A DNA stretch of 64,000 nt from a virus (taxonomy: Duplodnaviria; Heunggongvirae; Uroviricota; Caudoviricetes), in IMG/VR virus record IMGVR_UViG_3300050821_009413, positions 81,490-145,489 of that record; one strand, written 5' to 3'. Numbering within the stretch: position 1 is the first letter of the stretch; the number at the start of each line of letters is the position of its first letter. The notes beneath the pieces are model-generated. The model was given only the letters and a program-made list of their open reading frames with translations, did no database searches and had not been told where the DNA came from. This document shows, in pieces, positions 29,378-34,987 of this stretch. The position numbers were made by a program, and so were the translations under genes.

Positions 29378-29983
29378 TTAGGCCGGTTCGTGGGTGACCT
29401 GGATGCCGTACTTATTGCACAGACCCTCCAGACCGCCCGGAAATTCTGCACTGTTAGCGCTGAAGTGCCACTCACCGCTCCGCTTAACCAGCTCACCGAA
29501 CACCACGCATGTCGACAACGCGGCCTCAAAATCAAGCGGGTAAGTGCTGAGTTCAACACCGTTAGCTTCGGCGCGGATGATCGCGTTGCTCACCGCACCG
29601 AAGTTCTGGTTACGGGCCTCCGCGTCGTAGATCGTGACAGCGACGATCAGCTTCTCCGCTTCCGCGGGCAGCTTAGTGACATCGACGGTGATCTGCTCGT
29701 CGTCGCCTTCGCCGGCACCGGTGAGGTTGTCGCCGTGGTGAACGATCGACTGGTCCGGGCTGGACAGGTTGCCCCAGAACACGAAGTACTTGTCGGACAG
29801 CACTTTCTCGCCGCCGGCACCGTCGCTTTTCACGGCGAAGATAGACGCGTCGAGGTCGAAGTCAGCTCCGGCCACGTTGGAATCCTTAGCATCCCAACCC
29901 AACCCGATCAGCAGTTCGGTCAGGTGACCGCCGGCCTCTTTCGTCAAATTAACTTTCTGGCCTTTGACCAGTGAAACAGACAT
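29378..29983 (-). CDS. TerD-family stress protein
   Basis: With the start at ATG 29983 the protein reads MSVSLVKGQKVNLTKEAGG...GLGWDAK...GADFDLDASIF...HHGDNLTGAGEGDDEQITVDV...AVTIYDAEARNQNFGAVSNA, which is near-collinear with bacterial TerD/TerE. Confidence 0.8.
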   Translation of the reverse strand: MSVSLVKGQKVNLTKEAGGHLTELLIGLGWDAKDSNVAGADFDLDASIFAVKSDGAGGEKVLSDKYFVFWGNLSSPDQSIVHHGDNLTGAGEGDDEQITVDVTKLPAEAEKLIVAVTIYDAEARNQNFGAVSNAIIRAEANGVELSTYPLDFEAALSTCVVFGELVKRSGEWHFSANSAEFPGGLEGLCNKYGIQVTHEPA

Positions 29984-30021
29984 TGCTGTCTCCTTTCTGG
30001 GGGTGTGCCCCATTTGGTAGT

Positions 30022-30070
30022 GCCGGGACGGCGGGAGTTAGCTGGGTATCACATCCGGTTTGGCCGTCCC
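30022..30070. repeat. GC-hairpin repeat copy
   Basis: GCCGGGACGGCGG...CTGGGTATCACATCC...GGCCGTCCC. Confidence 0.5.
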
Positions 30071-30081
30071 AACCTGTCTAA

Positions 30082-32052: not shown

Positions 32053-33393
32053 TTAGTTGACTCCTCCCGTTACGCGCTCAGACCGCACGTAGGTGGCCGA
32101 GCTGGCGGCACCAACAATGTCGTTGATCACGGCGTCATCGACCTTGTCTTTCAGGTTGGTCAGTTCCTTCTGCGCTTTGATCATCGTCTCGTCCATCACC
32201 TGCCGGTTACGTTGACCATTCACATAAGCATCGTTGATGCCGTCGACCATCGTGCACAGCGAATCGACCACCGAGTTCACCGTCTCCGGTGTGATGGTTT
32301 GACGCTGCACCGACTGCGCGATCTGCGGCATCACCTGCGAAGCGGTCTTGAAGTAGCCCGCCACCATGTCGTTCGTGAAGTCCTGCACACCTTCGCTGAT
32401 CTTCGCGTTCTCCTCGCCTTGCAGCATCATCCGCCACTGCACGAGAACCAGCTTGGTGGTCGGCAACGCCGACTGCACCAAAGTGTGCATCTTCATCGCC
32501 ATGTCGACGTCCATTTGCCGCATCATCCGCAGCTGCGGCGCTGAGGCCCACGCCACGAACATGCGGGATTTGTATTCGCCGATCTTGACGTCGAGCGCCC
32601 GGATCATGTCGGCGTACTTACCCTTCAGCTCCGAATTCTTTTTGCTGACATCGTTGGGTTCGTCGTCGGGTATCCGCTGCGCCTGCGCCTGCGCCAGTTC
32701 GAGAACCAGTTCCATCACCCCGATCACGTAGATGAGGTTCTGAATTTCGGCTTCGTTCTGGTTGTACAGCTGCACACAAAATTCGGCGTTGCGGGCCAGC
32801 TGGATAGCGCGCCCCGAAAGGTCAGCTTCTAACCCGTCGATCTGTTTGATGATGTCCTCGGTGGACGCTTTGAACTCCGCCCACACGTCGCCGGCTTTGT
32901 TGAACCACTTGCGTGGCTTACCGGCCAGCTCCGCGGCTTTCTTCAACCGTTCCTGAGTCTTAGGGTCCGACAGGTCGTACTTACCTTGAGCGGCGCGCAT
33001 CTTCCGCTTCAAATCCTGCATCCCCTGCTGAGCTTCAGGGATCCGGACCGGCTCAACCTCTTTCAAAACCTTGTCGACCAGCTGGTTGAGCGCTGCCATC
33101 GCGTCGACACCGTAGTTGATGAACGCGGCAGAGTCGTCGCGCATCGACGGCAACAACTGCGCCGCCTCACCTTTAGCTTTGGCGAGTATGTCGGAGTTGA
33201 ACGTTTGGTAGCACATCAGCGCGGTCCGTTGGGCCGGGTCGGCGACGACGCCTTGCAGGCCGACGCTCGCCACACCCGCGGGTTCGGCTGGCACCGGCAG
33301 GTTCTCTGTCGGCTTCGGGAAAACGAAACCACCCGTAGGCGGCTCAGCCGTCGCAGTCGTCGGCTGCTCAGGGAAGGTAAAGCCAGTGGTCAC
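32053..33393 (-). CDS. TelA-like toxic-anion-resistance family protein (tentative)
   Basis: 446 aa, all-helical with a long coiled-coil. Its size and context (TerC/TerD/vWA) fit a TelA/KlaB-like protein. The similarity was judged by eye and is weak. Confidence 0.45.
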   Translation of the reverse strand: MTTGFTFPEQPTTATAEPPTGGFVFPKPTENLPVPAEPAGVASVGLQGVVADPAQRTALMCYQTFNSDILAKAKGEAAQLLPSMRDDSAAFINYGVDAMAALNQLVDKVLKEVEPVRIPEAQQGMQDLKRKMRAAQGKYDLSDPKTQERLKKAAELAGKPRKWFNKAGDVWAEFKASTEDIIKQIDGLEADLSGRAIQLARNAEFCVQLYNQNEAEIQNLIYVIGVMELVLELAQAQAQRIPDDEPNDVSKKNSELKGKYADMIRALDVKIGEYKSRMFVAWASAPQLRMMRQMDVDMAMKMHTLVQSALPTTKLVLVQWRMMLQGEENAKISEGVQDFTNDMVAGYFKTASQVMPQIAQSVQRQTITPETVNSVVDSLCTMVDGINDAYVNGQRNRQVMDETMIKAQKELTNLKDKVDDAVINDIVGAASSATYVRSERVTGGVN

Positions 33394-33404
33394 TTATTTG
33401 CCTT

Positions 33405-33902
33405 TCAGTTGAAGTGTGTTGACAGGATCTTGGTGTCAACGACGTACCCGGTGATGTCCAGGGCGGTTGAGCCGGTAACCCCGGCGATGTAGCGGCGCAA
33501 CGATTCGCGGCCCTTCTTGAGAAGTTCGGAGCCGGGGGCGGCGGTGGTCATGTGGGCATCACAGGCTTCATGGCCGCCCCCGGCAGCTCGTTGTGCGTAT
33601 GCGTCCGGATCGTTTTGGATAGCTATGTAGGTGGTGATCACGTTCTTGACCATCGTGAGCTGCTCCTGCAGCTCCGCCACAATCCTGCCCGGTGGCGGTC
33701 CCTGCGTGAAGTTGCGGTCCAGATATCGCTGGGTCTCCCACGCGACCGCGCTCACCAGCACTTTCATCCGCGCACTGTTCACTTCCAGCCGCATCAACCC
33801 AATCGCATCCAGCAGAACCTGAATGTTGTCAACCGTATACTTGTTGGCTGGACCCGCCGCCGCCGGGGTTGGCGGCGGCTTGTTCCTGTCGAACAAACTC
33901 AC
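33405..33902 (-). CDS. hypothetical protein containing an in-frame GC-hairpin repeat
   Basis: 165 aa. Residues about 105-124 (AAGGGHEACDAHMTTAAPGS) are encoded by a repeat copy. Confidence 0.4.
   Translation of the reverse strand: MSLFDRNKPPPTPAAAGPANKYTVDNIQVLLDAIGLMRLEVNSARMKVLVSAVAWETQRYLDRNFTQGPPPGRIVAELQEQLTMVKNVITTYIAIQNDPDAYAQRAAGGGHEACDAHMTTAAPGSELLKKGRESLRRYIAGVTGSTALDITGYVVDTKILSTHFN
33530..33582. repeat. GC-hairpin repeat copy
   Basis: CCGGGGGCGGCGG...TGGGCATCACAGG...GGCCGCCCCCGG. Confidence 0.5.
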
Positions 33903-34987
33903 ACAGCCTCCGCCAGCGCTTCGTCAACGTGGCCTGCTATCGCGTCGCGCTTGTTGGCGCGGATGCTGGACCACAACGCCGTACCGATGGCGACGATACC
34001 GATCACCCCGGTGATGTACTTGGGGACGTCGATGTCGGCGATGCCGAGCAGCAGGCACACAGCCAGCGCGGTGATCGCGTAGTAGGCTCCGTGTTCCAGG
34101 TAGCGGAACGTCCGCAGATGCCCGGTCCTGACCAGGTGGACGGTCATGGTCCGCACATACATCGCACCCAATCCGAGGCCGATCGCGATGACGAGGACGA
34201 CGCTGCTGATGGCGAACGCGCCGCTCACACCGTCGAAGCTGAACGCGCTGTCCTGCACCTCAAGGTACACGAACTGGGCGAACGCCCCGATGCCGGCGTG
34301 GACAACCTTCTTCCCGTTGCCGTCGTCTTCCTCATCTTCGGCTTCGAAGAAATTGGAGAACGATTCGACGGCCAGGTACACGGCGATCGCCGTCATGCCG
34401 GCTACCAGCACGCTCACCATGTGGGTGTGCCCGAAAGTTGCGCCGGCAACCAGCAGGAAACCAACCGCAACCAGGTACTTTAAATTGTCCCACTTCCCGG
34501 CTTTGGCTAGTGGGGCTTCGATCCACTTCAGCCAGTAGTCTTCGCGTTCGTTGTCGAACAGGAACCCTGATGCGATCAACAGGAGGTAGGTGCCGGCGAA
34601 CGTCGAGATTATGACGCCCGCAGCGTCCAGCCGACGCCCGTACTCGACCGGGTCGTGGAGCGCCAGGCTGATTGTGTCGAAGAAGCCCAGCTTCGCTGAG
34701 GCGAACACGATCAGGATCGGGAAAAGCAGACGCATGAAGCCGACCGCGAACGCCAACCCGAACGTCATGAATATCTTCTGCCAGAACGCCGACATTTTTA
34801 CTAGCACTTTGGCGTTGACGATGGCGTTGTCGAACGACAGTGACCATTCCAGCACGGCCAGGATCAGGACGATGGGGACTTGGCCCCACCCTAGGCCGGG
34901 GATGAAGCCGACGATGAGCGCGGTTACCGCGGTAATAATCAGGTCCCACTTGAAGGTCCCGAGCAGGCCCTGGTTCTGAATTGTCAT
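33899..34987 (-). CDS. TerC-family integral membrane protein
   Basis: LEWSLSFDNAIV and DSAFSFDGV are the paired TerC signature motifs. There are about 9 predicted TM helices. Confidence 0.75.
   Translation of the reverse strand: MTIQNQGLLGTFKWDLIITAVTALIVGFIPGLGWGQVPIVLILAVLEWSLSFDNAIVNAKVLVKMSAFWQKIFMTFGLAFAVGFMRLLFPILIVFASAKLGFFDTISLALHDPVEYGRRLDAAGVIISTFAGTYLLLIASGFLFDNEREDYWLKWIEAPLAKAGKWDNLKYLVAVGFLLVAGATFGHTHMVSVLVAGMTAIAVYLAVESFSNFFEAEDEEDDGNGKKVVHAGIGAFAQFVYLEVQDSAFSFDGVSGAFAISSVVLVIAIGLGLGAMYVRTMTVHLVRTGHLRTFRYLEHGAYYAITALAVCLLLGIADIDVPKYITGVIGIVAIGTALWSSIRANKRDAIAGHVDEALAEAV

Follow-up and report, generated by a model that had tools for sequence, protein, structure and literature searches.

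An abbreviated six-gene Ter module in a large phage, encoded between putative enzymes of NAD+ reconstitution

Ter systems are widespread and are tied to resistance against phages, colicins and tellurite, with no mechanism known; their phage-borne copies have been noted repeatedly and never explained. Here we describe a Ter module of six genes at positions 29378-34987 of a 64,000-nucleotide stretch of viral DNA (positions 81,490 to 145,489 of the IMG/VR record IMGVR_UViG_3300050821_009413, Caudoviricetes), which is referred to throughout as the window. The only Ter system with tested phenotypes (tellurite resistance, phage inhibition and colicin resistance) is that of the IncHI2 plasmid R478, for which phage inhibition and colicin resistance are attributed to the ter cluster by Whelan (1995), as cited in PMC9796965.

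In phages, abbreviated Ter operons have been described from Caulobacter jumbo phages and a near-complete set from Acinetobacter phage ME3, stand-alone TerD alone has been reported from actinobacterial phages, and a role against superinfecting phages (exclusion) has been proposed for phage Ter genes (Iyer et al., 2021, PMC7824862). The Ter cassettes of phages phiKp34 and phiPsa374 are discussed in the respective genome papers (PMC8386662, PMC9796965). Cassettes of the order TelA-vWA-DUF475-TerD are annotated in CcrColossus (gp219-222) and RHph_Y65 (gp228-231), with similar sets in ME3, FKP3, RsoM2USA, Kikimora, XaC1, Cygsa01 and phiPsa374 (gp11-15).

The module in the window comprises six co-directional open reading frames (ORFs) on the minus strand, with gaps of -4 to 68 bp, in the order DUF475-X165-TelA-vWA-X384-TerD. 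The Pfam assignments of DUF475, TelA, vWA and TerD are all above curated cut-offs, which bears out the phage-borne Ter module called here by an earlier reading of the letters alone (the initial annotation). At the level of profile matches, these assignments confirm the region as a predicted membrane-linked, abbreviated Ter hub in which a TerC-family protein, TerD, a TerF-type vWA protein and TelA are encoded contiguously. The same gene linkage is seen in the related phage contigs L005, L006 and L018 and in the cellular and metagenomic loci L007, L011 and L012.

The first gene of the module (33899-34987, minus strand) encodes a 362-aa integral membrane protein of the DUF475/TerC superfamily (PF04332, E = 9.3e-93; PF03741 (TerC), 1.1e-13; NCBIfam PRK14013 family, 1.8e-108), with multiple hydrophobic segments as in a polytopic protein. 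It reaches 48.9 bits against the YkoY subfamily model (cut-off 138.5) and is 37-45% identical to the DUF475 genes of 40 INPHARED records; no actinophage with a DUF475 gene occurs among the 50,697 phage records of that set. At the other end of the module, TerD (211 aa; 29378-30013, minus strand) is matched over the full length of its profile (PF02342, 197.6 bits, 1.7e-58) and has the Ca2+-site motif GDNLTGAGEGDDE. TerD and TerC had both been called unambiguous: the TerD call stands as made, and the TerC protein is more exactly a DUF475 protein on a branch of the TerC superfamily. On L003, a metagenomic contig of identical sequence, gene calling places the start of TerD at 29983 (201 aa) and that of X384 at 31212 (376 aa).

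The TelA-family protein (446 aa; 32053-33393, minus strand) matches PF05816 at 71.3 bits (1e-19; cut-off 30) over profile positions 11-327 of 332, and also phrog_5890 ('tellurite resistance', 8e-17). By these matches it is a solid yet divergent family member, and the initial description of the fit as only loose undersold it. Identity is 78-93% to the copies in L005, L018 and L019 and 35-38% to those of Saccharibacteria, and the sole tblastn matches among phages are Streptococcus satellite phages at ~25% identity. The N-terminus consists of ~60 low-complexity residues; residues 1-58 (33220-33393) are Pro/Thr-rich and contain two GF-x-FP repeats (TTGFTFPEQP and TGGFVFPKPT), which are not kept in the Saccharibacteria homologues.

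The vWA protein (249 aa; 31257-32006, minus strand; PF10138, 4.4e-41) is of the TerF type, has an intact DxSxS MIDAS motif (DSSGS at residues 45-49) and is 56-63% identical to the Saccharibacteria copies. Homologues of the vWA protein are found in 228 INPHARED records and of TerD in 116, including Streptomyces and Gordonia phages. The MIDAS motif had been seen correctly; the likeness to TerY drawn from it gives way to the TerF-type family, so that both TelA and, under its new name, the vWA protein survive profile search. Without a PADLOC match, the vWA protein does not fit the TerY-P defence system, which joins a TerY vWA protein to a PP2C phosphatase and a Ser/Thr kinase, and no gene of the block has a kinase or phosphatase Pfam match. 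Neither TerB nor an extra TerD-domain protein (TerA/TerZ/TerE) was found among the block genes in Pfam, PHROGs or NCBIfam.

The two remaining ORFs, flagged initially as embedded in the module, are by their conservation in relatives taken to be real ORFs and conserved module parts. Neither X165 (165 aa; 33405-33902, minus strand, overlapping the DUF475 gene by 4 bp) nor X384 (384 aa, likely start 31212; 30082-31236, minus strand) has a match in Pfam, PHROGs, NCBIfam or PADLOC. X165 has just 7 close homologues among 5.8 billion proteins, and its copies stand directly upstream of TelA in L007, L011, L012, L018 and L019. An identity of X165 with TerB or another solved protein gained no support, a PDB profile search giving chance hits only and Pfam none. 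X384 has 11 homologues in a word-indexed search and 133 (~40 of them full length) by HMMER among 1.84 billion representatives. It lies between vWA and TerD in L003, L005, L006, L007, L010, L011, L012 and L015, and it adjoins the vWA gene and/or TerD at all loci with visible neighbours except one, the shorter contigs showing only part of the vWA-X384-TerD arrangement. From the conserved X165-TelA and vWA-X384-TerD positions we take the unit to be DUF475, X165-TelA and vWA-X384-TerD.

X384 consists of a helical N-terminal region of ~250 aa and a C-terminal alpha/beta domain of ~110 aa with the near-invariant motifs DPW...FW...R-R...PW. This C-terminal domain is repeated one to three times in relatives, and a 572-aa relative with three copies sits between TerD and vWA-TerF-like genes. 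Modelled alone from 45 sequences, the domain reaches a pLDDT of 90.9, and the model has no structural neighbour in the PDB or BFVD. The idea that X384 is a TelA paralogue was ruled out (hhalign probability 0.6%). Ten remote proteins that carry the C-terminal domain gave no match against Pfam, and the contexts of the remote carriers P0057 and P0083 are too short to read. Another remote carrier, in a Capsulimonas metagenome-assembled genome (MAG; L016), lies outside any Ter context, so the domain alone is not Ter-specific.

A pattern scan, made on a one-genome-per-species collection with restrictive patterns, recovered X384 relatives in six MAGs: four Candidatus Saccharibacteria/Saccharimonadia, one unclassified and the remote Capsulimonas; the pattern scan of IMG/VR found X384 in no viral contig. 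All six module genes are present in the Saccharibacteria contigs L011 (CAYGDI010000001) and L012 (JALRHH010000001) and in the metagenomic contig L007. A HAD phosphatase gene and two PRTase_3 genes (PF15610, ComF-like) stand beside the Ter genes in L007, L010, L011, L012 and L015, and every cellular X384-type copy with enough flank has HAD and PRTase_3 genes; L007 additionally carries ATPgrasp_Ter and a C-C bond lyase. Together these enzymes are the set predicted to make the nucleoside-like signal of Ter systems, and the association of bacterial ter clusters with phosphoribosyltransferases (PRTases) that was invoked initially is thus found beside cellular relatives of this exact module. None of the biosynthetic enzymes of L007, L011 and L012 has a tblastn match below E = 0.2 in the window, which holds the membrane and sensor half of a Ter system only, without the biosynthetic half. 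In the one-genome-per-species scan, X384-type Ter clusters turned up almost only in Candidatus Saccharibacteria (L011, L012, L013 and L014), which are epibionts of Actinobacteria, a distribution that hints at genes having passed between these bacteria and phages that infect their hosts.

The initial annotation had set its reading against a recent capture of host DNA, with host-like codon usage and absence from related phages. The module is found in at least three related, distinct phage lineages, represented by four contigs (L005, L018, and the pair L006 and L019, which come from a single assembly), with protein identities of 62-93%. These contigs share other window genes in a different arrangement, and they differ in the neighbours of the module and in small inserted genes. 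Inserts between Ter members (L018, 6389-6778; L005, 3113-3322; L006, 110-400) are unrelated small genes, one example being a DUF4189 gene between DUF475 and X165, and they indicate that the module tolerates interruption. In L005 (4280-6537), Lsr2, PE and PPE genes follow at most ~300 bp downstream of TerD, past one 50-aa ORF, and both L005 and L006 have other genes in the place that a NAMPT-family gene occupies in the window. Module GC content is 0.59-0.615, and codon-preference distances are within the range of the other window genes (21 compared). This presence in relatives and the phage-like GC and codon preferences mark the module as a resident, ameliorated part of the phage lineage, not a fresh capture.

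Two enzymes of NAD metabolism lie on either side of the module; they were read initially as a NAMPT-family PRTase and a Prs-like enzyme, and mentioned alongside the PRTase pathways linked to bacterial ter clusters. A role for them as substitutes for the Ter PRTases is not supported. We read them best as a Namat-like and an Adps-like protein, which together would constitute NARP1. In this pathway, as set out in the survey account (bioRxiv 10.1101/2024.02.11.579819), Adps converts ADP-ribose to ADP-ribose pyrophosphate (ADPR-PP), from which Namat forms NAD+ with nicotinamide, countering NAD-depleting defences; the pathway is described there as self-contained, with two enzymes, and as found in 859 phage genomes. 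A Namat gene is stated to lie within 10 genes of 97% of Adps genes.

The assignment rests on the scores and residues of the one protein and on the relatives of the other. The Namat-like protein (nicotinamide ADP-ribose transferase, annotated NAMPT; 27709-29295, minus strand; phrog_448, 3.5e-175) reaches 432 bits against the SpbetaL1 Namat structures 9W5X/9W5W versus ~213 bits against Nampt of human and rat. Of the Namat residues, the catalytic arginine (R306) and two from the clamp (R40 and F392) are conserved, Y396 is changed to M, and identity to mycobacteriophage homologues is 61-63%. The gene abuts TerD, as first described, and its product is not a Ter component. The Adps-like enzyme of the PRPP-synthetase family (37912-38769, minus strand; phrog_619, 5.9e-73) is remote from canonical Prs (TIGR01251, 90 bits, cut-off 113; best PDB Prs, 55 bits), has no strong match among solved chains and is 50% identical to gp74 of Mycobacterium phage Bromden, which adjoins the NAMPT-like gp75. 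It does not flank the module directly, lying upstream of DUF475 at a distance of 2.9 kb, across seven genes (an SPFH lipoprotein, an exonuclease and five small ORFs). In the relative L018, a 55% identical homologue keeps its place upstream of the exonuclease and DUF475 genes. Thirteen called genes, the whole Ter module included, separate adps from namat in the window; the two share a strand and a gene block.

A NAMPT-family gene lies within ~12 genes of a Ter cassette in three of nine phage lineages: the window phage, phiPsa374, where Prs (gp29) and NAMPT (gp26) are encoded ten small genes upstream of the cassette, and RsoM2USA, where a NAMPT homologue follows two genes after TerD. In ME3, an NAD synthetase gene and a macro-domain gene are found 2-4 kb from the Ter genes. 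The other six Ter-bearing lineages (CcrColossus, Kikimora, RHph_Y65, FKP3, XaC1 and Cygsa01) show neither a NAMPT nor a Prs gene within 8-12 kb. Given this proportion, and the L005 and L006 contigs without Namat after TerD, co-location of Ter and NAMPT genes is recurrent and not obligate. Auxiliary genes cluster in phage genomes, and we therefore treat the neighbourhood as co-location in a host-protection island, its recurrence keeping a functional or regulatory link alive as a minority reading.

We propose, at slightly better than even confidence, that the phage-resident abbreviated Ter assembly guards the membrane of the infected cell, alongside an independent NARP1. TerD (through Ca2+), the vWA protein (through its MIDAS site) and the helical TelA, X165 and X384 would assemble under the membrane around DUF475, and this metal-dependent assembly would alter ion transport or the state of the envelope. 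The infected cell could then withstand membrane insults such as the entry of superinfecting phage DNA, pore-forming toxins or membrane-disrupting abortive-infection effectors. The colicins resisted through R478 ter are said to be the pore-forming ones. NARP1 would protect the NAD+ pool at the same time, with Ter and NARP1 contributing independently to a host-protection and anti-defence island that lets the cell survive until the phage finishes. From this analysis we infer that membrane protection would be the most economical Ter role for a lytic phage.

Several points weigh against this proposal. It has us infer complex formation, the membrane localization of the soluble parts and the timing of expression; no phage Ter cassette has had its function assayed, and the authors of the phiPsa374 study call the role of its cassette unknown. 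None of the six module proteins matches a PADLOC model, and a promoter and terminator scan revealed no promoter-like or convincing terminator-like sites bounding an operon. The biosynthetic Ter genes could lie elsewhere in what is probably a larger genome. Finally, three of nine lineages exceeds what uniform gene placement would give, and such a proportion is not expected if Ter and NARP1 are strictly independent.

This last point leads to the possibility that the two systems are functionally coupled, with Ter proteins sensing or acting on a product of Adps and Namat, a metabolite of ribosyl or ADP-ribosyl type; the two enzymes would then replace the PRTase/HAD signal genes. The initial annotation had raised a signal derived from ADP-ribose or NAD in similar terms. 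The module does sit between adps and namat, L018 keeps the order Adps-exonuclease-DUF475, the HAD and PRTase_3 genes of cellular X384-type modules are missing from the phage window, and the neighbourhoods of phiPsa374, RsoM2USA and ME3 all point the same way. The idea as originally put is countered by the self-contained nature of NARP1 and by L005 and L006, with their Lsr2/PE/PPE or other genes after TerD; the part of the survey account that deals with the 859 genomes mentions no Ter link. The six lineages without nearby NAMPT or Prs genes also speak against coupling, the PRTases of Ter systems are ComF-like (PF15610), a family apart from the NAPRTase/NAMPT family matched by the window protein, and the clustering of auxiliary and anti-defence genes inflates chance neighbourhood. 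We regard coupling as unlikely.

Metal handling offers a different account, to which we likewise give little credence: DUF475 would carry Mn2+ or Ca2+ out of the cell, or supply metal to exported enzymes (for example envelope-degrading enzymes of the phage), under the regulation of TerD, the vWA protein and TelA. TerC proteins move Mn2+ at the membrane in Bacillus (PMC10550928), the Ca2+ motif of TerD and the MIDAS motif of the vWA protein are intact, and of the module members DUF475 is best conserved among phages. Its YkoY score, however, places DUF475 on a branch distinct from that of the TerC proteins studied so far, and export alone leaves both the conserved TelA, X165 and X384 and the association of the cellular module with nucleoside-type biosynthesis unexplained.

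A bolder and quite improbable extension would make X384 and X165 core parts of a Ter machine that is distinct, has six components and is common to Saccharibacteria and to phages that infect their actinobacterial hosts, with the C-terminal domain of X384 as the receptor of a ribosyl-type signal; where the PRTase/HAD genes have been lost, the products of Adps and Namat (ADPR-PP or an NAD-related compound) would supply or tune the ligand. If this were true, a membrane response preserving the integrity of the infected cell would be tied to NAD+ status. Interception seems to us still more doubtful, the phage retaining the ligand-binding and effector half of Ter to bind or misdirect, in the manner of a sponge, the Ter signal of its host or of a competitor. 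The absence from the window of the biosynthetic genes that accompany the cellular module would suit such a role, as would the placing of the module in a block with the known anti-defence pathway NARP1; against it stand the lack of evidence for a Ter signalling system in a Mycobacterium-type host, the conjectural status of ligand binding by the module proteins, and a set of six conserved genes, a polytopic membrane protein among them, that far exceeds the needs of a sponge. That the module is functionless passenger DNA recently captured from a cellular genome, whether of the host or of Saccharibacteria, is scarcely credible, for although the nearest cellular six-gene copies are in Saccharibacteria, which live on Actinobacteria, and a transposase-like gene (19569-20579, minus strand; phrog_4285, 1.6e-83) lies ~9 kb away on the downstream side, beyond TerD, none of the six ORFs is disrupted, all are retained across the related lineages, GC is ~0.60 as in the phage and not as in the Saccharibacteria loci, and identity to the cellular copies is low.

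The wider window appears to belong to a large phage with a Mycobacterium-type host, as judged from its tRNA array, LysB-like lysis gene, PPE gene, Ku, RtcB and amidoligase genes and the identity of its NAMPT-like protein to those of mycobacteriophages. The window is 64 kb of a probably larger genome; neither the module nor positions 1-25000 of the window have a megablast match among INPHARED phage records, which places the phage outside that collection. Five tRNA genes are tightly packed at 684-1153 (minus strand; Leu-TAA, Leu-CAA, Leu-GAG, Leu-CAG and Ser-TGA), the lysis genes include a LysB-like cutinase/PE-PPE esterase, and the PPE-family protein (15966-17186, plus strand; PF00823, 3e-42) has a PPE-SVP C-terminus. 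Ku, RtcB and amidoligase genes are also encoded. A 543-aa fusion of polysaccharide pyruvyl transferase and glycosyltransferase domains (12838-14469, plus strand) adjoins the lysis genes. The GC content of the transposase-like gene, 0.65, is the top value among the genes measured (window average ~0.59). At 50236-56365 (minus strand), three amidoligase-type genes (phrog_22302) are interleaved with two phrog_25883 genes; one of the former, scanned against Pfam, matched Amidoligase_2, the latter are weakly glutamine amidotransferase-like, and the block suggests a peptide or metabolite ligation system.

Three neighbours share the co-directional block with the Ter genes. A 150-aa membrane protein (39437-39889, minus strand) matches Pfam Ion_trans over positions 1-116 of 241 only, without the pore half, and has an S4-like segment, LRILRIARFAHLMRHL, in which every third residue is Arg; it looks like a phage-encoded stand-alone voltage-sensor domain. 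An SPFH/Band-7 lipoprotein (36723-37652, minus strand; PF01145, 3.3e-07; phrog_200 'lipoprotein', 3.4e-34) has the lipobox LSGC at residues 16-19, and its gene is not in the corresponding block of the relative L018. Both proteins fit the membrane theme of the proposed Ter role, as candidate participants only. Directly upstream of DUF475 lies the gene of an Rv2179c-like 3'-5' exonuclease (35091-35630, minus strand), which just misses the Pfam cut-off (PF16473, 25.1 bits, 1.6e-05; cut-off 27) and matches the PADLOC exonuclease effector model PDLC00753 (1.2e-10); a 75% identical homologue holds the same position in L018 (4640-5182).

The value of the locus is that it presents a compact, six-gene version of Ter in a phage lineage for whose host group tractable laboratory models, M. 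smegmatis among them, are available. Two conserved components without annotation are added, one with a confidently modelled domain that lacks a structural neighbour, and the occurrence of the unit in cells beside predicted signal-synthesis genes provides concrete candidates for a ligand sensor. The flanking enzymes, corrected to NARP1, bring to three the unrelated lineages in which Ter and NAD+ reconstitution are neighbours, a pattern suggesting that phages group together the functions by which an infected cell stays alive.

Compared with known systems, the module shares its TerD-domain, TerC-superfamily and TerF-type vWA families with terZABCDEF/terWXY of R478 and the enterobacterial islands. 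It differs in having no detected TerB, TerA, TerZ, TerE or TerY-type vWA protein, and in having DUF475 instead of TerC proper. In R478-type replicons, TelA belongs to a separate operon (telAB/klaABC). Acinetobacter phage vB_AbaM_ME3 is another large phage in which the vWA, DUF475 and TerD genes are contiguous and NAD-related genes occur at a distance of a few kb; it has a PRTase-HAD-PRTase set (gp173-175) directly after TerD, whereas the window is without such genes. The flanking pair resembles the NARP1 pathway of phages, with a Namat-like protein and a candidate Adps, and departs from it in arrangement, since the genes are normally adjacent and are here more than 10 genes apart, and in one of two clamp-helix aromatics (Y396 to M).

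The abbreviated phage cassettes (CcrColossus, RHph_Y65, phiPsa374 and phiKp34) are closer: they have the same four families, contiguous and co-directional, in large phages of lytic type, and like the window they have no TerB, TerA or TerZ and no biosynthetic genes nearby. The gene order of the window differs from their TelA-vWA-DUF475-TerD, its TelA is too divergent for a tblastn link to the known cassette phages, and its host group, Actinobacteria, is unlike that of the known DUF475-bearing phages. X165 and X384 have no tblastn match anywhere in the 50,697 INPHARED records, and X384 profiles found no match in the L001 (CcrColossus) locus, gp218 included, or in L002. A hypothetical protein of ~340 aa, a size like that of X384, follows TerD in CcrColossus (gp218; L001, 10829-11839) and Kikimora (02320; L026, 8759-9778), with RtcB encoded one or two genes further downstream in the Caulobacter and Brevundimonas phages.

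Closest in content are the Saccharibacteria loci L011 and L012 and the metagenomic L007, which have all six genes, X165 and X384 immediately preceding TelA and TerD, respectively, at protein identities of 28-63% to the phage module. They differ in the vWA gene, which is on the opposite strand, in GC (0.48-0.57, and 0.48-0.50 in Saccharibacteria, against 0.60 in the phage) and in having no NARP1 genes within 10 kb. The locus is thus of a known kind, and is new in its host group, its gene order and its two extra conserved components; new also is the finding of the same six genes in Saccharibacteria chromosomes, beside two PRTase_3 genes and a HAD gene.

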